A DNA stretch of 62,877 bases, filler included, from Dimargaris cristalligena (GCA_003614675.1; 3 parts of 3 records of this genome joined end to end with filler, not necessarily neighbours in it); one strand, 5' to 3'. Numbered from the whole stretch's first letter, positions 14,912-60,912 are shown. Program-made: numbers and translations. The notes: generated by a model from the sequence alone, not told the origin.

Positions 14912-16469
14912 ATGCGAGTATCCGTCCTTTTTGGCTTGTATCCTCTGGCCCTGTTGGGCCCGATGGTATCTGCCATGCCGAGTAATCCAATGGACAGGTT
15001 TCCTATAGAGCTTCAACAAGAGGTGTTTGGCCATTTACCCCCACTTAGCAAGCTAATGGCCACGAACGTGAACCAAGAGTGGCGGGACATTATTTTGAAT
15101 GACCAGAGAGTCCGTAATGCCAAGGTAAATAAGAACTACACGGCTGATTATAGTAGTTTTTTATTTAGTGCTTAATGATATTAGTTCTCTCAGTGCTACC
15201 ACATCTATTGGATTGCATAATTAAACCTGCGATAGTCTTAGCCAGGCACCATGTTCCTATAGCCAACCCCCCCCCCCCCCCGTCTGGCTACCTCCTATTA
15301 TATAGTGTTTTATTAATTTGAGCTAATGCTAATACCGTAAATCATCATTCCATTCGTAGGCTATGGATGTGTTCATGTCCAACCCTGCTATCTACCCGGC
15401 CGAGGGCTCCAACCGTGCTACCCTGGACAGCAAACCTGGGAATCTTGGCCCCCTTTTTGACAACCTTATGCGCTCAATAGTGGTCAAGATGGTTTACCGC
15501 CATTTGAATCAACTTGGATTCGATGCACTAGGCAACCCCATATCTAATCCGACTCGACCTACCGCCCGACTTGCTTTAAACCCCAAGGTCCCGGAAGCTA
15601 TTAAAGCCTTCAAGCCCGAGCTCGAATGGCTCCATGCGAATCTCATTTCCATCCAAGTGGACGACAGGTCGAACGATATCGTCAACGCCTACTTCCCTGT
15701 CATCAACACCATTCACATAGGTGATTTGACCCACCTTGAGCCATTGGTAAATTACATGTGCACCGATGATTTTGCCCCGACGATGGGTCGCACCCTGGCG
15801 AACTGGATGCCTGAAAGCTATGTCAATTTCTTGAACATTTTAATGTTTGGCACTCAACCTAGGACCGAACCCATATCCGAAGTCACCCACATGGAGCAGC
15901 AGCGAGATATATATTTACCCGAGAATATCAAGCGTGATCTCCGTGTCACATTGATTCAGGCTACCACCTATCTAGCCACCCAGTCGGGTAATTTGCAACG
16001 ACTTAAGGAGATGGCTCAAGCCACGAGCCCATTTGAATTGAACACGGGCAGGGCGAATCCCAATAGTTTGGCCAGATATGATCGAAACATGGCCGCATTG
16101 ACCGCCATTCTTCAAGCCAACGCTCTGCTGGCCGAAGAGATATTAGCCATGCAGCCCCCAACCCTACCCCGACAGGTACTGGGCTACTGTGCCATTAAAA
16201 TGGGGTTCACTACCGAGGAGCATCTCCCCCAAGACTGGCAAAACCCTTCAGAGGAACAATTGAATCAAGCGCTCCCCATTAGATCGATGGTTGGTGATAT
16301 GGCCTGCGCCAGCGAATTGTACGGTTTGGCCACACCTATGATTTTGGGAAAGGACGGAAAGATCTCCCTGCTTTATTATCCTCTGAACGATCATCCGGTG
16401 GCATTGGCTATTCCCACTGGCTTGTCGACCGAGGCTGACATTGATAGACCCCTAAACCCTGCAGATTAA
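14912..16469 (+). CDS. Predicted secreted F-box protein, ~440 aa; exons 14912-15124, 15360-16469
   Basis: Signal peptide MRVSVLFGLYPLALLGPMVSA; F-box consensus MDRFPIELQQEVFGHLPPLSKLMATNVNQEWRDII; phase-0 intron AAG|gtaaat...cgtag|GCT joins the 368-aa ORF in frame. Confidence 0.8.
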
Positions 16470-17912
16470 GCCCAACACCCTGGTGATGGCGTATAAAATA
16501 TTGGCGATGGGGCTCATATGGCCGATGAGACCACCCCTTCTCCTCTTCCTCAAACGCATTTACCTGTGGGTTACTTCGTGCTGCAGTCCGATATCTTCCT
16601 TATTTGTTTTGCATATAAAATTTGGATACAAAATTCACTTATTTTATAAACGATATATGAATGGACAATATTCGCGGATGGTTGTAGTTCTGGTAGTGTT
16701 GTGTTGATGTGGTTAAGAATAAATGCAAATACAGTTATTTATAATGGGCTGTCGGTTTACGTGATTTTTTTGGTGGATAATTATGTTGAAATATGTCTTA
16801 ACGGTGCTATAATAATAACGTGTTATGGACCAACTATATTGGTTTATCTAGTCATTCTTTGTCCTCTCACTGTAACCACTTATAATGTCCTCTAGCTGCT
16901 ATCTTTTCTTCTTAGCTTGATTGATACACATCTCGTGTTTCCAACAAGTACTTCCTCTGCTATACCTAATAGAAGCCAGCCCACCTGGATTTTAAGCAGG
17001 GTAAGAATATTCGATGAATGTAGCTGTCTTCCTTAGACCTTGTAAGCCCATATCATGACATCCGTAGTCCTACTACTTTTGGCATTACAACTCCTATTAA
17101 TCTAATCCTATAAATTGGGGGAGGGTTTTATTTAGGTTGTAAATAACTATTAAATATAACCAGTACCCATAAATTTTTGTTTAAGGGAATAGATGGACCA
17201 GACAAGTCCAATGGAAATAAAATGCCAAAGTCCAAAGATGGGTGCATAGCTGGTTTATAATATAATAGTTGCATGTTAAACTTAATACCTAATTATATGC
17301 ATATAATCTAGTCTCGTTATTGAAGGTGTATTTTATAATACCACTTATATCATGATTACTTCTCTTTGATGTAATTAAGCATTACCTTGTAAAAATTTAG
17401 TGAAAATTTGAATTTATTTGTATACAGCCCAATATAGGTCAGCCAGCCAAGAAACATGACATAAACATGTATACTGTATTGAGTAATGCAGAGCAATAAG
17501 AAAGTTGAAATGGCATTGGAATCGGCAAGCACAAAGAAACGATCTCTGTTTAAGAGTACGCAGGAAATGCTGGTAAATTGGGAGGTTAGACAAACTAGAG
17601 GGTGGCATTTAAATAGGAATATAAGAATCAGTCGAAATTTGGTCATGAAGTCCTTTATCCAAGTCAGGATACCCTTTTCATCTACTCCTTTTCCACCTTG
17701 TCGAATTGGAGAGATAGATAGACCTAGGGGCTGCTACAACGATTAGGACTCTGGTAAGTCTTGTTTTTGATGAATAGGGACTCCTAACCCAGCTCTCCCA
17801 TTGGTTTATTTGTGATGGCTAAGACTGACTAGTGTCAAGGGGTAAGGGAGGTTGGAAATGGGCAAAATGGCTACAGAGGGTGTGGATTGGCTTTTGCTTT
17901 TCTACAAATGAA

Positions 17913-18113
17913 TTACATGCCGCATCTAGCAGGCTTAAGGCTAGGAGACGGCCTAATAGGCATTCTGGTAGGAAAGGGGCTTCGACGCTGAAGCCGATCA
18001 ATTTGGGAATAGACGCTTCCCTGACCGTTAGGCAGCGAGGCTTTGACATGGGCCAGGGTACAGGCCACGACGACCGAGACGAGGAAGGCAATGGTAAACT
18101 TGGTAAGATACAT
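17913..18113 (-). CDS. Small secreted prepropeptide, 66 aa, with Kex2-type site
   Basis: Hydrophobic signal MYLTKFTIAFLVSVVVACTLA(HVKA); LQRR dibasic site; TATATAAA ~150 nt upstream (18261-18270); AATAAA downstream (~17805-17810, minus strand). Confidence 0.7.
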   Translation of the reverse strand: MYLTKFTIAFLVSVVVACTLAHVKASLPNGQGSVYSQIDRLQRRSPFPTRMPIRPSPSLKPARCGM

Positions 18114-20150
18114 GCTGGTGTAGGATAGTGGAAAGGCGGCGATGGATAGTATAGAATGCAGCGTGGGCGGTCAACAGAAAGTGGATTTGAACTACCAGTA
18201 TGGAAATAGAGGCAAAGATGGAATGATGATGGCCTAATTGGTGGGGGGTATTCAATGGTATTTATATAAAACCGGGGCTAAGACCCATAAGGTGAATGAC
18301 AAAGCTTCGGATACAATAGGCGGCCCCACGGCACTTAGGCCAACACTCAATCCGTAGACACTGCTACCAATCAATGGGTTTAGCTAACACTGGCGATTTT
18401 TACTTGATCATCTGAATAAATGAATGACATGAAAATATAGGGGAGCTACCCTTGCCCACCGACTATTATTAATGCTGCCATTCCTTTTGCTTTAGGGGAC
18501 TCGGTATGTGGTAGAGAAACCAACGGGGGAACTCTAATATTTGAATAATGAAGAGCAGGAAAGTAGCTCAGTTGATTGTTGGAAACCGATTGTATTAATT
18601 AATATGATAATCCCTATATCTGAAAATGTGGTCTACCAGAAGCGGTGTTACCCAACAGTATCATTTTGAATGTTAACCCCCTGCTGTCCAAGATCTGCAT
18701 TCTCCCCATGGAACCATCAATACTGAACTAGTAGGTACGAGACATGCCATGCTGACCCATGGGTATGAACTCTGGCGGTCAAGCTTCATTACTCTTCTCC
18801 TCTTCCCCCCAACTCAAATGAGGGATGCCACACAATAAACTTGTCGAACCAAGCATACTTTTTATTTATTTTAAAAAATAATAATAATACTGATACTCCT
18901 ATTCCATGCGTCCGCCATGGCCTAGGCCTTCGCGGTGGTTTATTAGCTAATTATGTCTGTACAAGTGGACAACCCCGCCAATACTCGACTGGCCGGATGG
19001 GACGAGTAGCTCACTTCACCTTTTTACCGAGACTGATAATGTAGAACAAGTAGGTGACTTCAACATAATGGTGGCATTTCCCTTCGCCTGGCTTGTGTTC
19101 TATATCATTATCATTGGAAAGGCATTGGTTTGCACAACATTAGCCCGGCGTCCCTTTCCCTTCACCAAAGCCATGGGTCGTCTAATCATTGGCAGATTTC
19201 TCATGACCTCTGCCCGTTAGGCCGGCGGTCTTAAAGAGATACCAATGATTAATTGGCGTCAGCTTCCGAAAAACAAAGTGACAAAGAAGGGCTGTGGATC
19301 AGACTGGCGCCCTTGAGGCTCATTCATTAATAGATGTGGCATTCTGTCTATGCTGGTATTCTAAAAAGAAGGCACTGTGCCAAGTCTATGGCGGAAAAGT
19401 AGATGAATGGTCAATCCAATCTAGCAGATTTCGTGCATTGTGCCTATACCACGGTATTGTGCTGGGGTTTAAAAATTGGCAGGGTATTGCAAATCCTCTT
19501 TTCCTAAAATAACATGACTAAGTAAATGGCTCAAATAGAATTCCTGCTGCTTCAATTCCTGCCCGCTCTAACAATTGTAGTCCCTAGTGTCCCATAATAT
19601 CAGGTATATAGTGTTTGTATCACTTTAAACGTCCCTTCCTTACTGAGGTCACCAACATTAGAAGTAGTCCAATCACTACATCTTCAACTTATTATAATGG
19701 TGTCTACTGTACAGTGCCACAGCAGAGGTTGGGTGGTAACTGTGCTGGTGCAAATAGACGGAAAGGTGGTATGGCAGTTGTGGTGAGTGAGGCCTTTAGG
19801 GTATAGTCAATAAAGCCATAGCTATGGCTTAAAGCACACCATAATATCCCTCAAGGTAGATAATCCATAGGGCAGATCTGCACACCAGAACCAAGCCAAG
19901 GTTGGTAATCCAGGGCTTGGGACCAGTTTACCAATGCTATTAATCTAATATCCAAAGGTGAAATTAATAGTCACATGGGCCAATTTCCGCCATATTCCAA
20001 TCAGTATTAACATGTGCATGCCAACTAATGAACCACTTTGGGGGTTTTACTGCCACAAATGTCATTGGTAGTGGGATAAGACATACACAAAATTGTAGTT
20101 AACAGAATGAGGCAGACTCCCTTAGCAAATTAAAGGGTGGGTGGTGGGTA

Positions 20151-20718
20151 CATGGTAAAGAATAGTGATGTACTATGTGCTAAGGTGTGGCCTGGGGAGA
20201 GTATCTCTTGCTTCTGGGCTATAGTAGTGGGCCACTCCCTCCCCCAAAGTATCACATACTCATTCTCTAGGTCTGTTTAAACATATATCTACCAATAACC
20301 TACTATATCTTCTTATCTGTTTTTTCTTACCATACTGCAACATTAGCTATTAATAAAAGTTATATCAAATTGGGACTTCAGTACTCACACTAGTTTATTT
20401 CATCTTCAATGTGTTAGAAATATGGATTTGATAGTAAACACAAGTACCTTTGAATACAACTAAAATGTTTTAAAGAAGAGAGAAAGAACCACAAGGGGCA
20501 AGGCTAGATGCCCACAGTAGGTTTTATTGAGTTGGAATTAGTAGTAATAATGACTAGGACAAAGTCCCGGGTATAGAATGATATAGTAAAGATTAGAATA
20601 TAGTCCCGAGTATAGGACAAGCCAATCAGAGTAAAGGAATTGGTGGGACGGGGGAAATGAATTTCCAACACAATGAACCATTTAACTGAATAATACTTGC
20701 TGTAGTGCACTTACCACA
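20151..20718 (+). mobile_element. Possible older, degenerate LTR (with upstream purine tract) interrupted by the copia solo LTR
   Basis: G-rich tract AAAGGGTGGGTGGTGGG (20132-20148) precedes CATGGTAAAG; the segment ends in CTTACCACA (imperfect inverted termini); internal AATAAA; region is CpG-poor. Confidence 0.35.
20412..20670 (-). mobile_element. Solo LTR of the Ty1/copia family found at 61011
   Basis: Reverse complement aligns end to end with 61011-61270; TG..CA termini; flanked by a perfect 5-bp TSD CAATG (20407-20411, 20671-20675). Confidence 0.93.
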
Positions 20719-20769
20719 TTTTTTACCTACTTTTATTTTTAATCTATTTTTTGCACTTATCGGAAGTAC

Positions 20770-20902
20770 GCCCCTGACAAGTGAATGAGCCCCTGCCCCT
20801 GCCCCTGATGAATATAGTCATTTTTCCTCTATTTTCATTAATATAGTATTTTTTCTATTATTATATTTTATACCCTTGACTGTGATGCACCCCTGCCCCT
20901 GA
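20770..20902. repeat. Clustered (G)CCCCTG short repeats at a contig end
   Basis: About six copies of CCCCTG in three groups within AT-rich sequence, next to the gap. Confidence 0.6.
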
Positions 20903-20912
20903 CCGGATGATA

Positions 20913-21012
20913 NNNNNNNNNNNNNNNNNNNNNNNNNNNNNNNNNNNNNNNNNNNNTTAATTAATTAANNNNNNNNNNNNNNNNNNNNNNNNNNNNNNNN
21001 NNNNNNNNNNNN
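20913..21012. other. Assembly linker (N44-TTAATTAATTAA-N44)
   Basis: Exactly 100 bp with a six-frame stop spacer; identical to the linker at 41911. Confidence 0.98.
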
Positions 21013-21080
21013 CTTTTGACCAGTAATATTTACCTCATCAAATGGATTATTCGTTATACAGCCTGGATGAATTTCTGCCA
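21013..21080 (-). mobile_element. Partial copy of 138-bp MITE, truncated by the gap
   Basis: Reverse complement matches the left half of 60775-60912; ends ...GAATTTCTGCCA followed by TA. Confidence 0.85.
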
Positions 21081-22933
21081 TATAGTCCACCATAACTGCA
21101 GCCGAATAGCCCGCACATGTCGGCTAATTTTAGACGGATCCCGCTTGACTCGATACGGCGCCCCGGGTAGTACCTAAACATTACAACACACCGCAAATTT
21201 ATAGTATCCATCCTTCATTGATTAACATAGCCCAGGCAAAGACTCGGCTTAGTTTCTTCGTCGTATTATGTAGAGAGAAGGCGAAGGAAGCATGCGCATC
21301 ACCAAATGGTCAACAGTGGCCCCATTGAGAGGGTCTAAAGACTCTGGGCATGGGAACAAACTAAAACTATTGATCAAAAGAGCGGGAGTAGGGCCATGAC
21401 GAGTCCCGGACACGCCAAGGCAAACAGCATGTGGTTATCCGGTATTGTGAAAGGCCCCACCCATCTCGTAATAACACCCCCAGCCCCGATAGATTCATTC
21501 ACCACATATACCATAGTTATAACAGTACTGAATGAGGAAGGAAATGCCGGAATGCTAAAGATTGAATTCCAATACAACTATGGGCCATCTCCTTACATAT
21601 CGAATAGGTCACTCGCACTCGAGCCATTGTTAAGGCCAAATAAACATTGGATTCGACAGGCTGTGATTGACCCGCCCACTCACCAGTGCTCAGGCGTATG
21701 TGGTGCGCTCAGGTGTAATTAAATATAACCCCCAGTAACGTATGTAACCCGGGACCCTGGTCTGGTCGAAAAAGTCTCAACTGATTATCGTCACCAACTC
21801 CATCTTCGATCTACATGAATAGGGGGTATATAGCATGTATCCGGTCTAATAAGCCTCCCCCGCTTCCAATACTATCCGTTAACCCGCAGGTCAATAGCTG
21901 CCTGAATAGTTGTCGTGGCCTGTTGCAAATAAATAGATTGGCGGGACTTATTCTGGGGCTGGATTACGTACTCCCCATTAAATCTTTACACCACGATTTT
22001 CGCATGACATGTGTCCCTCAATCACTCATACTGCGCGTACTCTCCACATTTGTCAAAAATCCCCTCCCCCATAGGATTAGCCGGCTACCCTTTTGATATG
22101 TGGTTCAGTGAACTGATTTGAAAGATCCCTGACTGGCAGTTTCGACTGTTATATTCAGAACCCGTGTCTTCAATGAGGCGGCCTTTAATTGACCAATCAA
22201 TGCATCATTCGTGGAAAGAATTACCCGTTCATGTGGGAGATGAGATGTGCGAGTACTAACTAGGTGTAGAGGTTGGATGCCCACTATATTTACAATTGGC
22301 ACCGCCACTTATCTCATACCAATGGCTGTCATCAGCTGCCCCATCGGCTTGCGTAATCATAAATATAATCAAAATATCTTTCAGCGACACCGCTGTTCAC
22401 TTTGGTATTGCAATACCCGTATTATATTAAATGGTTGCACGATTCAAGGCATTACCAAAATGTCGATAGTGATATTATTAGTTTATGCAAAAGTCAGGGG
22501 GATAGTATATATCATATATATAGATGGAGTTCATAAATACAACCCTCTTTACGATCTAAGAGGGGCAAACAAAGCACGGTTGATAACCAGTGGAAATATT
22601 AAACATAGCCCAGGGGGGAGATTGGGCAAGCAGTGATCCGCTAATAGGTATAGTGGGACAAACAGGATGTCGCCACTATCGCGCGCACGAGTTTTTAAGT
22701 GGCAAATGACTAAAATGATAAGATAGTTAAATATCAAACAGCCGTAGATAGTTGCTTAACTGGATTTTTAAATTAACGGTCACAATGGATCGCATAGCAA
22801 AGTATATATATATAGATATATAGATATATCACAAAAAAATAAAAACAGGGTAAAAAATGTAATTCAATAAATAATCTAGCCCTCTGTAAACCATGCCATA
22901 GGTAGTCCGTATATCGTTTTTTTAAAAATGGTG

Positions 22934-25900
22934 TTATTCTACAGCCCGTTGACCGACGCCAGGGGGGCTCGCCGAGCCATTGCCAAGATAATTGCCCCCG
23001 CCTAGACTCTTGAATGGAAGTCGCCGTAGTGGGAGCTCAGCGTGCATTTTTTCAAACACACTGGTGGCCAGAGAAAATAGCTGCGATGTGGTTGTGCGTG
23101 CGGTGGATGGGGTAGAACCGTTGGCTGCCGACAGAGTAGCGAGGTCCTTTCTAGGACTACCGCCGGCTCTAGATACCAGGGTGCGAAGAGACGAGGTTGA
23201 CGAGGTAAACGAACTGGACATGGAGTCCAGGGTAGCGTCATCCAGCTCACTATCGTCATGACCTTCACCACTGCAGCCGCCGACAGTTACCATCGACACA
23301 TCATCACGGTAGTCGACAAGAGGAATCCCACTTTCAGTTCCAACCGTCATCATGGCTGCAGTGTCAGAATCCAAGACCAATTCATCGCCGTCGCACAGGA
23401 AGTCCATGTAGTCCTCGCGTTGTTCTAGGAGCAGCACCACGTCGTTAAGGGCTCGAGCGGAAGCAAAATCAATGGGCCGTTTGCTGTTGAAGGTTAGTAG
23501 GCTGTGCGATACACCAGCGTCAAGCAGCACCCGGACCACCTCGACGTGACCCACCCAGGAAGCAAAGTGCAAGGCAGTCATACCATTGCCATCCTGAACA
23601 TCCCCCTTGATACCGTGGTCAAGCAAGAACTGGGTCAACTTGGCCATTCCTAGAATAGCAGCGGCGTGCAGGAGCGTCTGGTTGGTCTTGTCATGTAAAA
23701 GAGTAAGGGAGTTCTCATCTAAAGTAAAGGAGGTCTGAAGCGAAGAAAGGATGGCCAGAACCGCCACTTCGAGGGCTTCCACGTCTTGTTTACGGAAGGC
23801 CGCGCTCAAGTCCTGTAGTAGGCCCATGTGCTGGGGGGAGGTACGGAAATAGCTGAGTGATAGGTCGATGGGACTAGGGGGGGGTAGGGTGGCCGCATTA
23901 TGGAGATCGGTGGTCAGGTCGACCGTATCTACGGACAGGGACCCGAGCGGGGAGGTTGACTGGGGGAAACTGGCCGACATCCCGTTGTAGCCATGCATGT
24001 TGCCCGCCGAGGGTGCGCTCGTTCTGCGGTTGGCTCCGTTGTGGGGGCCACCCTCCGTGGATACAATACGCATGGCAATTTGGCGGGGATCCTCGATCCG
24101 TCCAGTCATTTTGATCCCCACGACCTGCAGAGCTAGTTCCATCAGTTGACGCTCCGTGTCATCCACGTAGGTGAAGATGGGAACCGTATCCTTGTTGTCA
24201 ACCAACGAAGGGAACTCGCCCACGGTGGGTGACTCCCCAAACGAGACCATCACGGGACCGGCTACTGACGACGGGGGTAGGACACACACCATGGTGTTAG
24301 AAGACCAAAAGTGGGTGACTTTAGCAGGAGTATCCCCGAATAAAATCACCAGATTTTCGTGGAACCCAGTGCCGAGTAAGGTGACTTCGGTGCCACCGCT
24401 CACGGGACCCTCCATAGGCACCAGCCGGTCTATACGTGGGGGTCGGGAATCATTCGTGGGGGAAAACTGGGCACTGAATACACTGCTTTGCGGACTAGCA
24501 CTCTGGCTGTTGGTCAACACCTGGGTGATGGCCATGGGGTTGTGACTCTCGTTCAGAAGGGTGAAGTCGGGGATATTCACCGAATTGGCTCCCAGAAAAG
24601 CGTCCTGGCCCGAGCTTACAAAGGGGGAGTAAGAGGTCAGAGGCATACCGGGGTAGGAAGGGCCAACCAACCGATCCGGGGGAGGCATTAGGGCAACTTG
24701 GCTATAAGGGGGAGAGTTGGCCGGAAACCCAGTGGGTGGGGAAATGGATAGAAAATTAGGGGGAAACAGGGGCGTGGAGGGGGGTGAGAGCTGGGCGGCC
24801 AGGAGAGGCGACGGGATCGGGGTGTTACTACACAGCGGGGTGTTCGCAATCGAAGGATACCCGCTCAGGGCAGCCAGAGTATTGCTATCGATGGTCGACA
24901 TCCCCCCGGCGGGTTTGAGGGTGGCGGGTGAATTCAGTACTGAACGACGGGCCTTGGACACGTCATGGCCCAAGTTGATCTCGGCGGGGTTCTTGTGCGA
25001 TAACCGTCCTTCCGGATCATACTCGGCCTTGGGTCGTTTGCGGTCACTCTTGAACTTGGTGGACTTATGGTCATCGGTGATCATAATGGGTGGCGAGATA
25101 CCAGTTGCAATTACATTACCCATATGGTCCTTCATAGTCAGGTAGATGCAGAAGCCCACCTTCTCGGCGTGATGCCGACAGTAGCAAGTGATACGGGCGG
25201 GCAGATGCACCTCACCCTTATGGAATTCCACCAGATGGACGCAATTGAAAATCAGGGTCCGGTGGCGCTCCATGGCAATCCGCTCTTCGTCCCAGTCGGT
25301 TTCCATAGAAGTGTTAGAGTGGTCTCCGGTCGGTGAACCCGGACGACTCTGTGCCGGGGTAGTGCTATTGCTGGCAAAGTGCCGACTGCGATTCTCCTTG
25401 CGGCGCTGGGCCCGTTTATACTCACGCCGGATACAACCGAGGCACACCTCAACCTTCTTAGCAGGATTACTGGCGCAAATGACAGTGGCCTCCAGAGATA
25501 GGGTTTGGTGGATCGGTGGGGTCGGGGGCTGCTCGATAACCTGGCCTTGACGGTTGCGGCCCCGGTCCTTGATTACCGATAGTTCGGGAAGTCGCAAATG
25601 GGGCCAGTGCGTGACGGTATCGCCCTTGCTGTCGACCAATTGTAGGCCCAGCCGAATCTGAGTTTCCACTCGGGACTTAGCCCCATGCTGGGCAACTCCC
25701 AAAACCACAATTTGCATGCTCCGGTTGACAATTTCTTGGACCAACGACGCGGGTATCTGTTGCATAAGTCCGAGAACGCTGGTCTCGCTCATGGTTTCAG
25801 GCTCACCCCGGGCCTTGCGTAGGCACTCCAGGATAACGGCCGGGCTTGCCACGGTATCGCCATAGGATGGGGCCATGGAATCGGAATGAGTTTCGGGTTT

Positions 25901-28469: not shown

Positions 28470-28477
<8 letters not shown>

Positions 28478-28503
<26 letters not shown>
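28478..28503. repeat. (TA)n microsatellite
   Basis: Perfect dinucleotide run. Confidence 0.9.
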
Positions 28504-28507
<4 letters not shown>

Positions 28508-30296: not shown

Positions 30297-30344
30297 TATT
30301 ATTATTATTATTATTATTATTACTACTACTACTACTACTATTAT
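30297..30344. repeat. Compound (TAT)n(TAC)n microsatellite
   Basis: Directly visible; explains the poly-Y and poly-I/T spurious ORFs. Confidence 0.95.
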
Positions 30345-33300: not shown

Positions 33301-34164
33301 ATGCATTATAGCTGGTAACTCAAAATCCCCTAGGGAGATTGGTGTGCAGGCGAACCCAATCAGGATCACTTTACTGAATATAGTGCTTTGGTATTTTTTA
33401 GAGGTATAAAAGGGGTATTACGACATTAAGTCGTAAATTGATTTCGATTTCTCCCATCTCGGCCAACATATTAATGGTGACTTATGGCCGGGGCCCGTGA
33501 TTGAATTCACCGGTTTTTTATAATAGTGTGGTTACAAGATATCACTCTCGCTGATGGGGCTTTGGTGGCGGGCATAGATGATTACCTTATCATTGGTGCA
33601 TAGTGAGGAGGGGGTTCGATGATCGCGATATTACGCTATTCGTGTAATATTAATGAATGGGCTAAGCCGCATTTCAAGTGGGGGGGTTAATTCTTCACCG
33701 TAAGTTGAATTTACCAAAAGCCTTTTGAGGGATAGCTGTTTAATGATCGTTATTTGGGTACAGTGTACCCCCTTTAAGAAACCCCGCCCTAATGTATCCA
33801 CTTCCTTGTTATAGAAGATGTGAGGGGTTCTAACCCCTTGAAACCCAAATGGATGACGGCCACAAGGTAAAACCCCACATTGAAAAATACGCATCCGCCG
33901 TTATAAAGGGGCACCACCTCCACTTGACTAGTTTCAAATCAGCGCAATCCATCAAAGTCTACACGGAGAGTCTCTGGTCATCAAATCGGGGAACATCCAA
34001 TTCACCCCGCTCTTACCCTTCCACCCAAGTGCAACCCTTTGCTTGTTAAACTGATAACTTTTTTCCTACCACCGCATTTTCTTTTCTCATTTGCTTCTAA
34101 TATTTGTTATTTTTAAACCTCGTCTTGATAGCTTAGCTACCCTACTCGCACCGAACTCTCCCCG

Positions 34165-35739
34165 ATGCTCCAGCACTTGGATATGATATTGGGCGCGCCC
34201 GTTGGAGCTCTATCTAATTTCATTGGGCGGCACCGCGGAAAGAAGCATAGTTATAAGTACAAAGGACCCACCCCTAACGCTATTTGGAACAACGGTCAAA
34301 AAATCCGCGGGGTGAATCTAGGCGGCTGGCTAGTTCTAGAAAAATGTAAGTGTGCTTCTACTAATGTGGACAGACTATTCCAATAACTCTTGGAATTATT
34401 TGGTAACCAAAACCGTCGGAGTGAATATCCGGTAGACTAACGGGAAACTAATAATCACTTACTTCAGCATGAGCGTTGTCACTTTACTACCGCTTCTTTA
34501 TTTTCCAGGGATTACGCCTAGCGTATTTCAACAGTTCGACAACACCGCTATGGCAGACACGGTGAAGGATGAGTACACATTCTGCCAGAACCTTGGATCG
34601 GCGGAAGCCACTCGTCAATTACGGGCACACTGGGACAGCTGGGTGACGGAAGATACCGTCCAAACTCTGCACAGCTACGGAATCAACCTTTTACGCATTC
34701 CCGTTGGCCATTGGGCTATCGAACCCTTTGGAAATGAGCCCTACGTGCCCGGTGCCCTCGAATACCTCTGGAAAGCGACTGCCTGGGCGCAGAAATGTGG
34801 CATGAAAGTATTGGTCGATATCCACACCGCCCCGGGTTCCCAAAATGGGTTTGACAATAGCGGCCGCGCAGGCCCAATCGAATGGACGAAGAGCTCGTCC
34901 CACGTGGCGCATTCCCGACAGGTCGTCCAAAAGTTGAGCCAGCTAGTGTACGATTCTCCTTGGCGCTCCACGGTAGTGGCCATCCAGCCGTTGAACGAGC
35001 CGACCAACTGGGGCATTGATATGCACCGGCTTCAATCGTTTTATAAAGATAGCTACAAGGCCATCCGAGCCAAGTCCAAGGATACAACCATGGTCATTAG
35101 CGACGCCTTCATGGATTGGGGCTACTGGGTCAACAGCATCCCCAAGAAATGGACCAATATCGCCCTCGATGTGCACATTTACCACTGTTTTACGGACGAG
35201 TACCTGACCCTCAGTGCGAACCAGCACCTGTCCAAGGTTGCGGAAAATGAAAGAAGGATCGTCGATATGTCTCAGCATATGCCTGTAGTGGTGGGAGAGT
35301 GGTAAGTCGTTGGTAATTAACTTGGTTGTATACCTAGGCAAGGCCGGTTCGGCTTTTAATATAGTAGGACAATTTACAGATTAATGTATATTAATATAGG
35401 TAATATCCCCCTTGATTTGTGTTTTATATCTTCCGCCGCAGGTCGCTGGATACCACCAAGTGCTACGAAAACTATTTTCGAAGCAATTTCATGCAGGATG
35501 ACGAATGGGATAAGCCCAATGCTAAGCGCTACGACTGTGACTGCGGAAAGGAATCGGACCTTAACCAATACACTAATGCCTACAAGAACTTTCTGACTAC
35601 GATGGGCCACTCCCAAACCAGTGCGTATGAAAAGGGAGCAGGCTGGATCTTCTGGAACTTCCGAACCGAATCCAATCCTCCCTGGAACTACATGCTGGCG
35701 GTGGAGCAGGGCTGGATCCCCCGATTCCCCAGTACCTAG
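34165..35739 (+). CDS. GH5 exo-beta-1,3-glucanase (Exg1-like) paralog A, ~423 aa; exons 34165-34345, 34509-35301, 35442-35739
   Basis: IRGVNLGGWLVLEKWITPS, DEYT, HWDSW, RIPVGHW, PGSQNGFDNSG, NEP acid/base, DVHIYH, VGEWS nucleophile, GWIFWNF; both GT..AG introns restore frame. Confidence 0.95.

Positions 35740-50103: not shown

Positions 50104-50105
<2 letters not shown>

Positions 50106-50139
<34 letters not shown>
50106..50139. repeat. (TA)n microsatellite upstream of the Zn2Cys6 gene
   Basis: Perfect dinucleotide run. Confidence 0.9.
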
Positions 50140-50141
<2 letters not shown>

Positions 50142-50714
50142 ATCTATCGTTCCTCCTTAAAGTGTCCGAAGCCCTCCTCTTGCACTCTCTCAACTCTTTG
50201 GATTATAATATTGATATATACCATTATTTCACCTCGGTTGTGCGAGATCCCCCCTTTTTTTAGAACTGAGCATACATTGATATCCAGTGCCGTTTAATCG
50301 AGTCAACTCTACTTAGTTCCACCGCTCGTGTATTACCCTTCCTCACTTACTCATTGCCGGAAAATACTATTACGACCTAGCCAGACTTTAAGGTCGCACC
50401 ATCTACCTTGACTAACTGCGAGACACTGGCTAACCTCAGTTTGGTAGCAGTGATCCCTTCTCGATCCCATCACCCATTGCCTCATTGGCGAGTCTTTCTT
50501 GGCGCATACTCGCCAACCCTTCTGCCCAGTCCATCTCCTTCTTTGCCCTTCCTTTACGCGCCCCAACCGTTGAGGCACGCCTCACCCCTCTCTACTGGTC
50601 GAGTAGAGTCCCACTTTTTCTAACTGGCGCAGCCCATACAGAACACACCTCTGTTTACGACCACTGCTGGTCCCCGTGGTATATTGCCTACTGCCTAGGA
50701 GGTCCATTGGTCAA

Positions 50715-53141
50715 ATGGCCCAAAACAAGCCTCCTAAACTTCGGCGCGCCTGTGACCGCTGTACCGAAAAGAAGATCAAATGCGATAATCAGCGGCCATG
50801 CGCCGGGTGCATCCGAAAGAACACCCCCTGTCACTATAGTCCAGCCTACAAATCAACCCTCAAAACCATCAAGGTATCCCAGGTGAACCCGGGGTTTAAT
50901 GTCCTGATTCAAACCACCACGTCCCTGCAGGACTCTGTCCCTTCTCTGGCCGCCCAGCCGGAATCCTCCGGCCTAAGGCCTTCGCCGCCCCCAATATTAG
51001 CCCAGAGAGCGGATCTCGGCAGCCACAACTCCCTTTCTCCCCCAGTCATGGGGAGCTCCCCTAATTATCGGTTTCAACACTATGGGCTGCAAAACCAAAG
51101 ATCCCTCGATGCCAGCTATGCCCCAGGGGAATACCACAATCTCGCACTTGATGGCGACCGTTCATCCCCACCCCCCGCCCAGATCATGGCTCTCATTGAG
51201 CGTATCAATGGGCTGGATCTCGCCGCTCCACTTACCACTCCAAACGATCTATTATACCACCCGGAACTGGCCCGCCACGCCATATCCAAATACTACCACC
51301 TTAACTTCCGCTCCGGCGCCAGTCTTTTTTTTGATCACTTTTGGTACTTGGCCAAGCGCAATCAAATACCCCACATTGTATATAACTCTATATTGGCGTG
51401 TAGTATCCGGCACAATTTGGATCTACATAAACTTTCGCACATTCAAGTTCGTAACGTGGTAAGCCCATACATCAGGCGTGCTGAAGATGACCTCATCAAG
51501 TGCAGCGATGCGCCTTCCTTAGAACACCTGGCAGCCATCCATGATTTAATGAGTTGTATATTGTCCAACGGCGACCAAACTCAATACAACGCCTACTCAG
51601 GTAAGACCGATACTGCTTTAATCGAATCGAATCGCGCAGTCTATTTCTATTTTCTCAACGACTCCTCGTTATTAGTGCTGTTTAAAGGCACCTCTATGTA
51701 CTATCTGAGGGCATCATTATGTTATTTAGTCTGTCCAACTTCACAATTTGCCACGCAGTTCCAATGGTGCCACGCCGTCTAAACAACGCGTGTATATATT
51801 GTTATGTATATCCTTCCAATTATATGTGCCCTTTTTGAACCCCCCTTCCCCAATTCCATCATCATTATTTAATTCAGGATTTGCTATCAAGTAAGTCTGC
51901 AATATTGCTACATAAGTTGTACATCAAAAGCCCCATTTTGTACTTTACACGCATATAAGTGGCTCTATTTTCACTCACTCATTCATTTCAGCTATTTAAC
52001 AACCATACGCCCCCCCATTCTGAAATCTCGAACCTTTCTAATTTACTGTTTATCTTACCTATTTAGAATGGCAACCGCACTCAATCTTCGGGCCACCGAT
52101 TCACCGCCGCCCTCCGAGCCCGAACCACCTATTGTGGCTCTTAACCGGGAAATTCGCCGTTCTTTGTATTGGACAATGGTACATAGCAGAAGCCTCATTT
52201 CCCTATTTTCGCTTATTCCGCTTCAGGTCGGCCTGCCCTCCGACGGAGTTCAATTTGTCAACCTTCGTCGCCTAGAATCCCTGGCCCGTACATGCCTAAC
52301 GAGTGGGCAGGATTGGTCGACTATTGCGCCTGTCATCCCCACCACACCCTGCAGCATCTTTAATTGCCCCGAGTCGGAGCAATTGATGGGTCTCATGGGA
52401 CTAGTGGTCGAATTCATTCGGAAACGGTATAGTTGCCGACTCGTTTCCCCTGCGGAGGAATGTGCAAAGGTAGAAGAGACGCTTATTCGCTGGTATGAAC
52501 AGATCACCCCGCTCTACGCCCTGCCCACTTGGGAGCAGGCCCGCCAGCTCGCAGTAGCGCATCCCCACCACCTGGCCGATATTATCCAGCTTCATGCGCT
52601 TTACTACTGTACATACATATTTATCTTTATGTCCCACCCATTTTCCTCCCGTGTGAGTCCGATGGACCATGCCCTACCCGACCCCCAATCGCCACCCACC
52701 CATGGTACCAGGGTCACTCCTATCTCTGGGCAATATTGTAGCTATAATAACCCCTTGCCCTCCGGTGCCGACCAACCGTGGTGTCCCCCCAAACCCTGCG
52801 ACCCTGAAGCCCTTGGTGTCGAGCTTGACTTCCCGGGCCGTGGGATTAAAGTGGCCCAGCGCTTCTACCACGAGGTTTTCCCCCTGATCCGTTTATTGTC
52901 GCCCCGGGTCATTCGTATAGGAACCGGGGTATATCTCCACTGGATTATTTTGATATTCACCCAGGCCTGTTCTTCCAAACCCGCCCCAACGGAATCGACG
53001 TTGTCCTCCTTCCGTCGGGCTATTGAGGAAATGTCGGCGGTATTGGAATCCCTGGGCTGCTACTGGCCTAATCAAAATATTAAACTCTTGCCGATTTTCA
53101 GTTACAACGGGGCTTTTACCCCTTCACCCAAGCGAAAATAG
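50715..53141 (+). CDS. Zn(II)2Cys6 transcription factor with fungal-specific TF middle domain, ~657 aa; exons 50715-51600, 51878-51890, 52067-53141
   Basis: ACDRCTEKKIKCDNQRPCAGCIRKNTPC cluster; spliced SGFAIKMATALNL...REIRRSLYW matches the Fungal_trans GxAxRMAxxLxL...ExRRRxxW motif. Confidence 0.92.
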
Positions 53142-54428
53142 GCCGTTGTAGAGTTGGAGTGTCACCCCTACCTCGTATTTTAGATCACCATGTAACATTA
53201 CCTCTTTTTTCTCCAACCGCATATTTCCATGTTAATCCTGCTATTCTATTTCAATGGTGCATTAATTAAGTAGTTCTCGGACGGCGAGGGTGCATGTGCA
53301 TTACCTTGGTAGGGGGGGGGATTACCGGTACTTTGTCTAATCCCCCGACCTGCCGCGGGGAGGAGGGGGGGTATGCATCCAGCCATTCCTTGCCTTGATA
53401 GTCGTAATATAATCCCACATATAGCACAATGAACGTAAGGGGTAGTCGTCCCCTTTACCTGGCGCTAGGTTGCTTATATATCGCTTAATCGTATTCCATT
53501 GGAGTGGGTAGAGGGTATTATTAATCCCTGACCCTTAGTTAAATTTCGGAATATAGTATTGTAATAACAGGGATCTCCCTCTTTTCTTGGAGCGCTTGAG
53601 CCAAAGGGGGGCTTAGATTTGCACATTATACCTGGTGCTATACTGATGGTTAGGCTCACACGCCAATTAACGAACGCTGATCAACTGCCTGAAACGGATA
53701 ATTGTGCGCGGTGGAGTTAGTTTACTTTGCTTTTGTGATGTGAAAAGGCATCAGTGACAAGGGCAATCCAGCCAAACACACATGTACGCCGACTTAGCGA
53801 TACCCTTGCCTAATAGGGGTACACTATAATTGTACTCCGATAGACAATTGCGACCATAGCGAATGAAACGTAGTATTTACTGCTGCCAGGGAGGTTTGTT
53901 GCCTCCTTAACCAAGGTAAGGTCCGTTCTCTCCTTCTACTAGCCCCCTCCGCTCGCTTATTCCCCCCCTACCTTTACTCCTTTTCTCCCTACCTCTCGAG
54001 TCAACCCACCCTACTTTGGTTTCCTTTAGGGATTAACTAATTGTATCCCCCTCCTATCTCTTTGCTGCCTTCTATTAGTACTTCACCCGATATCCTTATA
54101 GTTCGAACACCCCTCGCTTTCCATTGCGGAGAAATCCCCCCCGCGACTGCCTACCCGCCTATTGTTGCCTTTTCGCTTCGGCTCCGATAGAATCCCACTC
54201 CGAGCGGCTTGGCAGCTCTTTAGTAATACCCCGGTCAATAAACCTGGCGGCTTTTCCTTATCTCGGTCATCCTCCGCTGTTTCTCTTTGTTCACATTTAC
54301 CCCTTGGACCATCCTTGGAAAGACTCCCCCCAATTTTCTTCTCGCCATTCCCAACTCCCCATCACCCAACTCATTTAGTGGAGCTTTGTGTTTTTATTTA
54401 TAGGCATTGCTAGTTGCGATTTTTCAGT

Positions 54429-57013
54429 ATGGCGGCCAAGAATCCGGTATTAAACCCGGCTGCTTCCGGCTCGATGGATGAATCCCGATTCCAGGACATG
54501 GTGCTCAAGGTAAGTCTAATGCCTACTCTTGACAACTTTTCAAACGACACAGAGCGCATATTTATATATATATAATATCCTTTACGCATACTCAAAGTAT
54601 ACTTAGCCAATAAAAGCACACTCACCATTATTTACCTATCCCCTCTACTGGGCTTATTTGTGACTCCGGAATCGACTTAAATCTAACAGTTGGCTTTATC
54701 CCTATATAACATTACTTACTCCCGCAAATAGTTCCAAGAGCGAATTGAAAATCTCCAGGAAGAGAATAGCCAGCTATTAGAAGACCAAGCCAATAAAACC
54801 AAGGTGAGTGGCGGATATACCGATTTAGTAGTGGGTTGTACTCGAAAACATCGGTTGGCAGGTTAACCGCGGGCTAATACTCAATCGTGCAATACGGGAA
54901 ACTAATCTATTGCCTCTTCAATGTAATACCCCCCTGTGTATTCCTAAAATACCTCCTATACATCGGTACCCTCTTTCAGAAAATCCGGTTTTTCCAACAG
55001 GAGGTGTTCGACTCCCGCCAGCAGTATAGCCGGATGGAAAACGAATTCTTCCTCAAAGCCACAGAAATTGAGAAGATCCAGAAGGAAATGGGTAACCTCA
55101 CTCGGGTTCGCCGTGATCTGGCCGACCGTCTTCGGAAGGAGACCCTGCAGTTTGAAAAGGAACGCCAGGAATGGCAGGACCGGGAACTGGAATTGAGCGG
55201 ACAGATCAAACGCCAGGCTTTTGACCGCCGACGATTCACCGTCTCGGGTCCACCCAAGAACCAAGCAGCGACTAATGAGCGGGTGCTGGATGTTTTAGCC
55301 GAAGCCACGGGGGATTCCGGCGACCCACTCCCGAGTAGCGGCGCCTCTTCCCTCACCGATATGGACCGCGATCGCCAGTCGGCCATCCATAGCCGCACCA
55401 TCCGGGCCCAGGATAAACTCGTGCAAGAGCTGCGGGGGGATGTGACTAACCTACAAAGGGGGAAGGTCCAACTCCAGGAGTATCTGGACCAACAGGCGCT
55501 CCGGGTACTGCAACTCGAGAACGAAGCCGGTCAGCTCCGCCAAGTCAACCAATCTCTAATGGAGGACAACGAGTCGTACCAACGGCTGCTACACGAGAAG
55601 ACCATGGACGGCAGCTTTAACTTGGGCGCCTTGGGGTACGACCACTCCAACAGCCAGGACGGTTTGGCCAACCTTGCCGCCGAACTCAGCCCCACGGACC
55701 AAGGCCCAGGATCCCCTGGCCTCTACCCCCAGAGTGCGGGACTGGGTATGGACTTGGCTGCCGAACTGGACCGGGCCTTCATCACTTCTCCGGTCCCAGA
55801 CGATCACCACATTAAGCAACTCAAGCAAAAGGACGATAAGATCGATAAGCTCAAGGCCGATATTAAAAATCTAGAGAAGGAGGTCAAGTCGCACAAGGAC
55901 GAAAGTAAGGCACTTAGCCTGTATATTAACAAGATTCTGAGCCGCATCATGAACAGTGGTATGCTACAGCAGGTTCTGGCCCAGGATTACGCGGGCTCCC
56001 GTAGTCCACCCACTGCGGCCGGGGTGCCTGCCGATCCTACTCCCGACATCCCTGTTGCTGACCATCCTTCAGGCTCGGCTTCAGCGGGCCCTGGTATGGG
56101 CCGGGCTCGCGCCGTCACCATGGCCGATAGGAACACCCCTCGGAATAATTACCTGAGTGGTGACGACGATGACGACGAAGACGACGGCCTGGACGCCATG
56201 ACACGGGCGGCCCGGACCGCGGCCCGCATTCGGGCCCAGAAGGAACAACGGCGCATGTCCGTGGATCAATCCAAGCTACTGGGGACAACCGCCGGAGCCT
56301 CCACCACTGGTGGACCCCCCCAGCTAACCCAGCGACCGGGCCGCTCCAATACTGTAGCCGGCCACCGACCACCCGCCATTCAAACGCAGCGCCAGGAAGG
56401 GGGCGGCGGCCAGGGGTTCCGCTCCGTATTTTCCCTCCTATCGCCCCGGGCCCCACCGCCCCCACCCAGCACCACAGGTGAGAACCCCCCTCCATCGCCG
56501 CCCCCGCCTCCACCTAAGTTTACCCACATGACCCCCGAGACGGCCGCTGCCTCATGGGGCCGCACCATAGAAGAGGACGACGAAACAGACCACGTCGCCA
56601 CGGGAGGGGCTGCGGCGGAGCGGGCTGACGATGTCTTCCACAGCAATCGCCATTCTTCCACTTCCTCATCATACAATCGGGCGTCGATTCAACGACGGGC
56701 AACCACTATTATGTTCACCAGTCCAAAGCCGGAACAGGCTGCTCTTGCAGCTGGATCCAACAACGAGGGGCTATCCGAAGGGTCTTTTGTGGGCGGGAAC
56801 GGACATAGTAATGGAAGTGGCGAAGTGAGCGACTCTCCTCGCCAGCGCCAAATGCGCCGGCATAATTCAGTCAGTACACCCAACCAGCCCCGCATCGATG
56901 CTATACGACAGGGGGACGGCGGTATGGTGGGATCGGATAATAACCCCGACAATTCCTCGGGCTGGAAAGCGGCCTGGAAACGGATGAGCTCGGCGTCACC
57001 CTGGAAGTCTTAG
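54429..57013 (+). CDS. Long coiled-coil protein with Rab11-FIP3/4-like segment, ~728 aa; exons 54429-54509, 54732-54803, 54980-57013
   Basis: Two phase-0 GT..AG introns; heptad-rich N-half; LRQVNQSLMEDNE...LAAEL...ALSLYINKILSRIM; disordered Pro/Ser-rich tail. Gene structure is solid, family call is tentative. Confidence 0.8.
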
Positions 57014-57933
57014 GGACTCGGGACAACATGGAGGCCAGTCAGCATGGTGGTACATTTGTTGCCCTCTTCATTGCCATTCCACACCGCCACTTCCATTCCC
57101 GCCGTGTGCTACTTTGTCTATTATCATGGACCTCCCCTCCACTCGTCCCTGCATTCGTTAGGTTAGATAATACGAGCTACAGGGCACATCATGCACTTCT
57201 CGACTATTATTCTCAAACATCATTTTTGTCATTTTACCTCTTGCTAATATCATATAATTTATCTGGACTCTTTCTTTGGTATCCTTGAACTATCATTTAT
57301 CTGTCATCTTTTTTCATTATTACTACCAATGGGGTTGTGTTTCTGTTATAAACCGAATATCATCTATTTCTTGTACTTGCCAATTATAAGTCGACGATGC
57401 CCCCTCGTCCAGTGATATTAATGTACGCTGTTGTTTGACCATAGCTATTTACCACATCAGGGTCATCCAAGACTAGCCAATGAGGGGAAATCACCCAATA
57501 CATCCAACGCTGGCATCCTACATAGTACCGTTTGGTCTGTGACCGCCGCTGGAATAAAGTGATTAGGGTTTGACCAGAAACATAATGGACCTTTAAAATA
57601 CCGTGTGAATAGCAGCATGTCCAGGCATTCTGGCGACTATCAAGGCCAATAAGAATCGATATCGATACCAATATTTTATTAATAATATATATATATATGT
57701 ATGGTTCTTAGCATTCCACATGAACAAATCATGGCACTCGCACCTGCTAAATATCAAGCAATATTCTAATATATTATATCCAACAAGTTAAGTAAATTAT
57801 ATAAAAACATTTTTCAAAACTATATAGTGGTCGAAGGAAGGAGCACGGGCCTTCCAATGGACTCATACCATAGCACTCTAAACCGATGGCGGTATACGAG
57901 GGAGGGTACAGAGAGGGGAGAAGAACCAATTTG

Positions 57934-59966
57934 TTAGTTTGGTGCTATATTATTCCAGTGCTGAATTCGGTCCTGAACCGACCCGCCGGCGGGGTTGGGT
58001 AAATTGGCTGGCCGGGGAGGCTCTACCCCGTCGCTTACGGGCTTCGGCCCGTTGGACGAAGAGGAGGATACCAGCGCCGCCTGCGCCCGGGCCGCTCTGG
58101 CTAGTTGCAAATCAATTAGCCATTGGGGTTGCTTGGACTGGGTCACCACTGGAAGGGTTGGTGGGGTTGTGGTAGAGACGGAGGTGAAGGGGCCCATGGT
58201 GGCAGGGTCTGAACTATTAGGAGTCAAGTTCATACGGTTTCCAAGTCCGGAAGAGCCGGCGAGAGCCGAGGGGTGTCTAGCCGTCGAAGTAGAAGTGGTG
58301 GTGGTGGTGGTTAAATAGCTGGAGTAGTTTAATTGGCTCACTGGTTTGGCCCAGGGCGCCGGTGCTGGTCCGTTGACCAGTTTGCGGTATTTTTTTAAGG
58401 CATCTTCTTGGGTGAATAGGGTTGGATCAGTCACCATATAGTAGAGGTCCTTCGGTTGGGACTCGTTGGTAAAGGTGTAATCGCCAGGCTGTCCAAGTAT
58501 ATGTTTAGGAAAAGGGGCGAGCAAATTGACAAAGTCCAGGGGATCCAGGGGATTCTGGTAGCCTTGGCGATCAAACCAGTCGAGGGCCCGTTTCGCGATA
58601 CTCGAAGCCTCAAGTTCATTAGGTATCGTAGGTTTCACGGCTGGGCGCAGGAGGGCGGCCGCTTCGTAGCGCTTCCACTGCAGGGCCATGAGGAAAAGGC
58701 CCAACATCTCCAGGGCATCCCACGTACGCGCCTCCAAAGCGCGGACCGAATTCTCATTCTGGATAGCAGCGTCCAACAGCAAAAATTCGTCCAGGGCAAT
58801 CACGTCATTGACCAGAATAGCCGCGCGGATACAGTCGGTCAGAATCATAAACCCCGTCACTTCGGCAATTTTGTCTGCTTCCCCCTCGCCGAGATTAAAG
58901 CCATCGGCCAGGGATTGCCACCGGGCGTGGGCAATATCCACGGCAAGGCCACTTCGGCCTTCGTACACGAGCAGGGGGGAGAGGAACTGGAGGCGAATAT
59001 CGTCGTCTTCGAGGTCCGGGATGGGGATAATCTTTTTGGTAATAAAGGCCTTAGTGTCCGTCCGGCCAGTCGAGTCGAACTGTTGGGTAGGGACAAAAAA
59101 TTGCCAGTCGAAACAGTAAATCAGTTGTATCATTTTATCCAGGGGCCCGGTCTGAAGGAGCTTACGCAGGGACTCGTAGACTTTGGAATCCTGGACTCGG
59201 CTCAGGTATTGTCCAAACACCGCTTCGGACTGGGCGAGGCCATGGACGAGGTTTCGCCGTTGATAGAAAGTTGCAGATACGATGGCAAGTATAGAGGCAG
59301 ACGGTCCGAATAAGGGTTTTAAAAATAAGTACATACAAAAGAGGAGGCGGTTGAGAGGATTGCCATTAAATAGTCCAGAAATACTAGGTAATGAACCAAG
59401 TATGGTCCAACATGAGCCGGACAGGTTTTTAGCATCGAAACCATTTTCCTCCTCCAATCTTAAGACCAGATAATAGCCCAGAGCCACTGGTCAAACCGAA
59501 CCCTTTACCCATCCTCCGTTAAATTTCATGAACAGCTGGCTCTCCCTCTCTGGCCTGGAAAGTAACCCCTAATTTTTACCTCTACAATAAGTTCTTCCTC
59601 CTTTTCCGTGCGATTGTTGCGGTCGAGACTTATCACCTGCGGTAGCCTTAAGAGTTCTATAACCGGTGCAAGAACGTCGGGGAGGTTAAGCGTGTCTACA
59701 GGAAATGCGTATTGGTCACCGTACTCCAATAAGCCGACTTCATCATCGTTGGCCACCTCGGAACCGGCATAGAAAACCCCGCTCGAAAAGGGGCGGCCAT
59801 TCGAATCCGAAAGCGCTTCATCATAGGATGGCAACGCCTTCCCTTCGTTATAGCTGGGGGGATCCACGGAATAGGCGGGGGGCGGAGGCGTTTCACCAGT
59901 AGTGCGCAAAGCACCCTGCAATACCCAAAGGCTAATTAGCCAGATACCGTAGGTGTATTTGGCCAT
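57934..59966 (-). CDS. Predicted secreted orphan protein with three N-terminal PY motifs; simplest model exons 59966-59580 and 59229-57934 (splice sites uncertain)
   Basis: Hydrophobic N-terminus MAKYTYGIWLISLWVLQGALRTTG followed by PPAY, PPSY, LPSY; donor GAG|gtaaaa and an in-frame acceptor cccag|TCC; long downstream ORF with coding-like composition. Confidence 0.7.
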
Positions 59967-60774: not shown

Positions 60775-60912
60775 TGGGAGAAGTTCATTCAGGCTGTATA
60801 ATGAAAAATCCATTGGATAAGGCCAATATTACTGGTTAAACGTTATTCTCACATATATTCGCCCATACACGTATTGTGTAAAACCTTATACAGCTAGTTT
60901 GAATTTCTCCCA
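60775..60912 (+). mobile_element. 138-bp MITE, TA target site (Tc1/mariner-type non-autonomous element by inference)
   Basis: TIRs TGGGAGAAGTTCATTCAGGCTGTATAA / TTATACAGCTAGTTTGAATTTCTCCCA; TATA on both flanks; four related copies in the window. Confidence 0.9.

Follow-up and report, generated by a model that had tools for sequence, protein, structure and literature searches.

Among the closest described counterparts of the genes considered here are the SSGP-71 proteins of the Hessian fly (Mayetiola destructor), which carry a classical signal peptide, and the bacterial F-box effectors, to which Agrobacterium VirF and Legionella AnkB belong. In the passages of PMC4617103 that deal with such proteins, the N-terminal F-box of SSGP-71 is described as binding host Skp proteins, with hijacking of the host Skp1-cullin-F-box (SCF) ubiquitin ligase being proposed, and Ralstonia RipG7 is described as binding host SKP1-like proteins via its F-box. 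Predicted secreted F-box and RING proteins have also been put forward as candidate intracellular effectors of a fungus, Piriformospora indica (relevant section of PMC3708536). Here we describe two genes from a 62,877-nucleotide stretch of DNA (hereafter the window) of Dimargaris cristalligena (GCA_003614675.1); near-identical database proteins are assigned by name to this species as well. The fungus is a biotrophic mycoparasite, grown together with a host (as stated in part of PMC6784888), and its order, Dimargaritales, is termed mycoparasitic (in a passage of PMC9866270). A preliminary description, which was made from the DNA alone, had guessed this lifestyle correctly, and had proposed that the two genes form one system of secreted effectors recruiting host ubiquitin ligases.

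Both genes join an N-terminal leader to a module of the kind that recruits a ubiquitin ligase: an F-box in the first (gene 1, product P0015) and a cluster of three PY motifs in the second (gene 2, product P0014). This observation of the preliminary description is confirmed here from the gene models, the leader, the F-box and the PY cluster; its effector interpretation is supported in part, being plausible for gene 1 and no more than possible for gene 2. We tentatively favour, at somewhat short of an even chance, an interpretation in which proteins of the gene 1 family are secreted to act as SCF adaptors within the host, with gene 2 as a possible analogous recruiter of Rsp5. The leader would carry the gene 1 family protein into the secretory pathway of the parasite, and the mature protein, with the F-box now at its N-terminus, would be released at the haustorial interface and enter the host cytoplasm, where the F-box would bind host Skp1 and the variable C-terminal domain would select host proteins for ubiquitination by SCF. 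Gene 2, which encodes a leader, three PY motifs fitting the WW domains of Rsp5/Nedd4-type ligases and a domain of its own, may act alike via host Rsp5. Secretion, host entry and the binding of Skp1 or Rsp5 are steps that we infer, and the full proposition that the mycoparasite exports both a diversifying F-box family and a separate triple-PY protein into its host, turning SCF and Rsp5 on host proteins, must be regarded as doubtful.

The C-terminal domain of gene 1, used as the profile in an exhaustive search, returned 7 matches among 1.84 billion representatives, all of them from D. cristalligena, and together with their cluster mates these represent 7 loci, five of which have full-length models (P0015, P0005, P0011, P0013 and P0012). 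The gene had been called an orphan, which is apt in that the family is restricted to this species (7/7 matches) and mistaken in that the gene is not single copy. Every full-length member (5/5) has a leader, followed about 8 residues on by an F-box and then by a common domain of about 370 amino acids, at an identity to gene 1 of only 25-35%. The remaining two models (251 and 155 amino acids) are without an N-terminus, and one of them begins exactly at the exon 2 boundary, its first exon having likely been overlooked. When the five full-length members were compared with Pfam at E up to 0.1, two F-box models were matched and no other family, and no leucine-rich repeats (LRRs) were detected. The retention of leader and F-box throughout a species-restricted, expanded family fits, as far as can be judged from sequence, a family of secreted effectors.

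The leader of gene 1, MRVSVLFGLYPLALLGPMVSA followed by MP, shows the succession of n-, h- and c-regions typical of a Sec signal peptide, with a 10-residue Kyte-Doolittle maximum of 2.07 and a -3/-1 site at residue 21. Similar features recur in all five full-length members, which have a positive n-region, 10-residue maxima of 2.07-2.61 and cleavage-type sites of the small-x-small form at residue 21/22 (VSA, VPA, VSA, VSA and YSA). The rule by which signal peptides were recognised, namely a positive n-region, then a hydrophobic h-region some 7-15 residues long, and a small side chain at both -3 and -1, describes the N-termini of these five proteins and of gene 2 alike. As controls, a GH5 glycosidase encoded in the window has a similar leader (2.65, VFA/VS), and four controls from the window that are cytosolic or nuclear show no such leader, with 10-residue maxima of at most 1.15. 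The cores of the family leaders consist of 11-16 uncharged residues, including 2-3 prolines, Ser and Gln, with positive charge on the N-side of the core and a neutral to acidic flank, devoid of any basic cluster, after it. According to the positive-inside rule, positive charge on the N-side places the C-terminus in the lumen; this charge and the lack of a basic cluster after the core fit either a cleaved leader or an N-in orientation, the F-box being luminal either way, and there is no Skp1 in the secretory lumen. A P450-like N-out anchor, by which the F-box would be held in the cytosol, was considered and fits the charge pattern and core composition of the family leaders poorly.

The module that follows the leader is accepted, on the strength of its sequence, as a divergent F-box, which is borderline by Pfam alone and for which Skp1 binding is a prediction only. 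Exon 1 of gene 1 taken alone matches PF00646 with 22.8 bits (gathering score 20.5). A profile of the F-box stretch from the five family members gives 16 matches in the PDB at E up to 10, all 16 of which are F-box proteins aligning over their own F-box (Skp2, FBXW7, FBXO4, FBXO42, FBXL2 and Dia2 among them; best E 0.0054). The residues P, E, V, W and L do not vary across the five aligned sequences, and the LP or FP pair is present in four of the five sequences, with AP in the other.

The pairing of leader and F-box in gene 1 needs no splicing, since both are encoded on a single exon in a single open frame. The ATG at 14912 is the first after an in-frame stop at 14879, 10 codons upstream, and no other ATG occurs in the 212 nt upstream of 14912. 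A downstream Met (M22 or M27) as the true start was examined and, as a general explanation, is ruled out by P0005 and P0013, which are without such a Met; in these two paralogues no Met at all lies between leader and F-box, so that the F-box is translated only together with the leader and the design cannot be put down to a wrong start codon. The intron of gene 1 has intron-like codon scores in all three frames, and its splice junction (RVRNAK/AMDV) is shared by P0001, the corresponding model of a second annotation. The first residue of P0001 is Met49, which falls midway through the gene 1 F-box, and in P0010, from the same second set, the F-box is missing its second half; automatic annotation thus conceals the combination of leader and F-box in that set.

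The N-terminus of gene 2 (Table 1) looks, from its residues, closer to a leader than to a membrane helix, the case being weaker than that for gene 1: the core comprises about 13 residues, with a possible -3/-1 site at TTG/ET. The PPAY, PPSY and LPSY motifs that follow fall within 20 residues (aa 29-48) at a spacing of 7-9 residues. This cluster is not due to chance, at least three PY motifs per 25 amino acids being obtained in 3 of 100,000 shuffles of the gene 2 protein (about 3e-5), and three per 25 amino acids in 1 of 100,000 when the mature portion of exon 1 was shuffled; binding to WW domains (Rsp5/Nedd4) is predicted. The remainder of exon 1 (59580-59822) gives a clear signal of coding in the gene 2 frame, with a codon score of 0.154 versus -0.53 and -0.61 in the other frames, and P0003, the partial model of the second annotation, begins exactly at 59229, the same start as that of exon 2 in P0014. 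At the other end of the protein, the Ser/Thr-rich tail with its NxS/T sites suits an extracellular protein. Gene 2 has one paralogue, P0004, with 66% identity, making 2 loci in all, and word-based homologue searches with the single sequence and with a profile found only P0003 and P0004; the exhaustive HMMER search covered gene 1 only, and the species restriction of gene 2 is less firmly based. No Pfam match was found for gene 2 at E up to 1 on its exons or up to 0.1 on the full-length protein, and neither SPRY nor RCR was detected.

Several points weigh against the interpretation of the gene 1 family, and of gene 2, as exported ligase recruiters. All gene models are predictions, and the leaders were called with a rule-based script (charge, hydrophobic core and -3/-1 residues) rather than with a trained predictor. 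The PF00646 score drops to 18.9 bits, under the cut-off, when the full-length gene 1 protein is used; on paralogues it falls to 13.7 and 14.4 bits, with no match at all in two of the five full-length members. No recognised uptake motif follows the leader of either gene 1 or gene 2, and cysteines are scarce in the two proteins (3 and 2). A common origin of the two C-terminal domains is rejected, the hhalign probability being 0.05%, and the AlphaFold2 models of these domains, which were run on 3-sequence alignments, have predicted local distance difference test (pLDDT) values of 33.6 and 37.5. For gene 2 the leader is short and may be a membrane anchor, and the P0004 model begins at exon 2, without leader or PY motifs, such that the design is seen in one gene 2 model only. 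Within the gene 2 intron, moreover, the in-phase frame stays open over 59490-59230, the 87 codons that precede the acceptor, and the stretch 59451-59230 has an ambiguous codon score of -0.06, which is not exon-like but lies above that of a clear intron (-0.8); given the open frame and the ambiguous score, another exon structure, including a second hydrophobic stretch, is possible.

The two genes are accordingly best described as sharing a common theme, which, on the sequence comparisons, is not a genetic system. The single system envisaged in the preliminary description receives no support, the C-terminal domains being unrelated and the genes lying on different contigs; the latter had been stated in that description and is borne out by the layout of the window, which is made up of three pieces of about 21 kb (1-20912, 21013-41910 and 42011-62877) with N blocks between them. 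The helical domain attributed to both proteins is helical only in the low-confidence AlphaFold2 models. Sequence searches of the PDB with whole proteins and with profiles gave no match for either C-terminal domain, and a search of the ESM Atlas gave no usable match for gene 1. An ELYS-like or nucleoporin helical domain was considered for gene 2 and rejected, since the ESM Atlas match (0.85) lies below the trust line and has no Pfam backing at E up to 1. The C-terminus of P0012 reads ...PPPPANW..., gene 2 (57934-58030) and its paralogue end in a conserved ...EPPRPANLPNP..., and three other members of the F-box family terminate in APPGFQL; the likeness among these short proline-rich C-termini may have arisen by chance.

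The same combination of hydrophobic N-terminus and ligase-recruiting module might instead belong to endogenous membrane-tethered adaptors, in which an uncleaved anchor or an inefficient leader would leave the F-box and the PY motifs facing the cytosol of the parasite, there to recruit its own SCF and Rsp5 to the endoplasmic reticulum, Golgi and endosomes. Such tethered adaptors exist, examples being the single-pass PY adaptors Ear1, Ssh4, Rcr1/2, PMEPA1 and Ndfip and the membrane-bound FBXW7 beta, and since both SCF and Rsp5 are cytosolic this would be the simplest use of the modules by the cell that produces them. The composition of the family leaders does not favour this explanation: prolines, Ser, Gln, the length of the core and the small-x-small end make for a poor membrane helix and a typical cleaved leader, and positive charge on the N-side with no basic cluster after the core speaks against an N-out/C-in anchor. 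Gene 2 offers it more, in that the PY motifs begin 8 residues past the hydrophobic stretch, like those of membrane-proximal PY adaptors, that this stretch reaches 17 residues if Y4 and Y6 are included, and that the segment 59451-59230, if coding, would add a second hydrophobic stretch and render the PY loop cytosolic. However, gene 1 has a 19-residue Kyte-Doolittle value of 1.74 and gene 2 one of 0.94, the latter too low for a typical membrane helix, and no second charge-free hydrophobic segment is found. On balance we consider tethered adaptors rather unlikely.

It is improbable, too, that the proteins are secreted without recruiting ligases, being extracellular or part of the cell wall, with a decayed F-box-like helix bundle and a Pro/Tyr-rich stretch that serve some other purpose or none, as the core of the F-box (LP/FP, E, hydrophobic positions and W) is kept among paralogues of such low identity, as the family profile matches only F-box proteins in the PDB, and as three canonical PY motifs at this regular spacing are very improbable by chance. 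Consistent with idle modules, on the other hand, are the sub-threshold score of the F-box in the full proteins and its absence from two of five paralogues, the tail of gene 2, which is typical of fungal wall or mucin-like proteins, and the fact that no translocation motif was recognised. Finally, the design might be an artefact, the first exons having been misjoined to downstream open reading frames (ORFs), or the contigs deriving from a co-culture organism; the predicted nature of all the models, the cultivation of the parasite together with its host (part of PMC6784888), and the divisibility of gene 2 into a 146-aa ORF (59966-59526) and a 466-aa one that begins with the ATG at 59334 could all be cited in its support. 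Such an error is very unlikely, given that in gene 1 leader and F-box share one exon, that the design is repeated in five paralogues, that the two ORFs of gene 2 are only 190 nt apart, that two differently tagged annotation sets agree on both exon 2 starts, and that the proteins of two differently tagged assemblies are 99% identical.

Table 1. Coordinates of the features of gene 1, gene 2 and their surroundings, counted from the first letter of the window.
Feature	Position	Strand	Description
Gene 1	14912-16469	+	two exons; product is the annotated 440-aa P0015
Gene 1 exon 1	14912-15124	+	71 aa, phase 0
Gene 1 signal-peptide-like leader	14912-14974	+	aa 1-21; MR, hydrophobic core, VSA/MP
Gene 1 F-box	14993-15106	+	aa 28-65, Pfam PF00646
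Gene 1 intron	15125-15359	+	gtaaat ... ctaat ... tag, phase 0; junction as in P0015 and P0001
Gene 1 exon 2	15360-16469	+	369-aa family-specific domain, no Pfam match; includes stop codon
Copia-like fragment, 260 nt	20412-20670	-	82% identity to 61011-61270; 3.9 kb downstream of gene 1
Gene 2	59966-57934	-	two exons; product is the annotated 560-aa P0014
Gene 2 exon 1	59966-59580	-	129 aa
Gene 2 hydrophobic leader	59895-59966	-	aa 1-24, MAKYTYGIWLISLWVLQGALRTTG
Gene 2 three PY motifs	59823-59882	-	PPAY aa 29, PPSY aa 36, LPSY aa 45
Gene 2 rest of exon 1, acidic stretch	59580-59822	-	aa 49-129, part of P0014
Gene 2 intron	59579-59230	-	350 nt, gtaaaa ... cag, phase 0
Gene 2 exon 2	59229-57934	-	predicted helical domain, about 300 aa; tail rich in Ser/Thr/Pro, bearing NxS/T sites; includes stop codon
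MITE-like repeat copy	60772-60915	.	about 0.8 kb upstream of gene 2; 90% identical to 43945-44088
Copia-type retrotransposon fragment	61011-62877	+	truncated by the contig end; 1 kb from gene 2

The surroundings of the two genes differ. Transposable-element neighbourhoods had been claimed for both; the claim stands for gene 2, which lies close to copia-type gag/pol fragments (ORFs at 61223-62872 matching Pfam DUF4219, Retrotran_gag_3, Pol_BBD and gag_pre-integrs) and to a repeat resembling a miniature inverted-repeat transposable element (MITE), and is reduced for gene 1 to a single short copia-like fragment. None of the 20 ORFs of the first piece that were scanned against Pfam gave any match, and so none contains a transposable-element domain, and this piece has neither tandem repeats nor repeats within itself, the copia-like fragment shared with another piece being its only repeat. 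The repeat near gene 2 is a copy of a palindromic element of about 284 nt at 43945-44228, the arms of which (70 nt) are 86% complementary; a further copy, at 21013-21084, lies at a contig start, and the element, of which two pieces carry partial copies, has the look of a MITE family. To either side of gene 1 (8400-14900 and 16500-20400) there is no open frame of more than 167 amino acids, 16 ORFs there are without a Pfam match, and the GC content downstream of the gene is lower (0.40-0.44), such that its setting looks gene-sparse.

Elsewhere, the fungal genes of the window encode an SPT23/MGA2-type regulator, a Zn2Cys6 factor, Clp1 and two GH5 glycosidases. The GH5 genes, at 34165-35745 and 37910-39178 (+), both belong to the middle piece and are separated by about 2 kb; a clear signal peptide is present in the second, which served as the GH5 control above, and the first apparently needs introns. 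Three open frames, at 54878-57010 (+, 711 aa), 2180-3430 (-, 417 aa) and 51873-53138 (+, 422 aa), are without a Pfam match at E up to 0.001, and a distance of 0.9 kb separates the 711-aa frame from the gene 2 3' end.

The molecular effectors of biotrophic early-diverging mycoparasites seem barely described. The preliminary description had presented such effectors as without a known description in parasitism of fungus on fungus, and this needs to be qualified, as secreted F-box effectors are known for the Hessian fly and predicted in Piriformospora indica (passages of PMC4617103 and PMC3708536); a literature search found no paper joining Dimargaris with the F-box. The words 'F-box', 'effector', 'secreted' and 'ubiquitin' are all absent from the main text of the D. 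cristalligena genome paper, one paper from a search on mycoparasites and F-box proteins discusses only ordinary F-box genes under selection in Sympodiorosea, and a literature search for PY-motif effectors gave nothing relevant among the papers listed. Were the export of both the F-box family and the triple-PY protein true, it would constitute the first ubiquitin-hijacking effector set to be described for fungus-on-fungus parasitism, combining a new target-binding domain with an ordinary Sec leader. A family with an export leader and an F-box would provide a concrete handle, with a known host partner in Skp1, on how one fungus tames another from within. The ubiquitin machinery of parasite and host is also near-identical, which raises the question of how action on the self would be avoided, and routing through the secretory pathway is one possible answer.

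In comparison with known systems, gene 2 resembles the single-pass PY adaptors (Ear1, Ssh4, Rcr1/2, PMEPA1 and Ndfip) in having an N-terminal hydrophobic segment followed by a cluster of [LP]PxY motifs. In those adaptors, however, a full-length membrane helix is followed by basic residues and the PY motifs are cytosolic; the Ear1/Ssh4/Rcr-type helix (at least about 18 hydrophobic residues with a basic flank) is not matched by gene 2, in which the short core is followed by one Arg and then Glu. The viral PPxY late domains provide a different parallel, being likewise parasite-encoded PY motifs for a Nedd4-type ligase of the host; unlike gene 2, the viral proteins are made in the host cytosol and need no export. 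The gene 1 family shares with the bacterial RipG/GALA-type effectors an N-terminal F-box that mimics host F-box proteins, but the bacterial effectors are prokaryotic, are injected by type III/IV systems and carry LRR or ankyrin domains, whereas the gene 1 family has a Sec-type leader. With Piriformospora indica, the host of which is a plant, it has in common that secreted fungal F-box proteins are no more than predicted; the exhaustive profile search revealed no family relation between the two. The closest likeness in design is to SSGP-71, where a eukaryotic parasite also has an expanded, lineage-specific family with an N-terminal F-box preceding a variable target-binding domain (as described in part of PMC4617103). 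The differences are nevertheless clear: SSGP-71 serves an insect on plants, ends in LRRs and has been shown to bind Skp, whereas the gene 1 family belongs to a fungus on a fungus, has a predicted helical domain without a Pfam match, and is only predicted to bind Skp. Being without LRRs and without any Pfam match beyond the F-box models, the gene 1 family belongs neither to SSGP-71 nor to the bacterial effector families, and may work like them.

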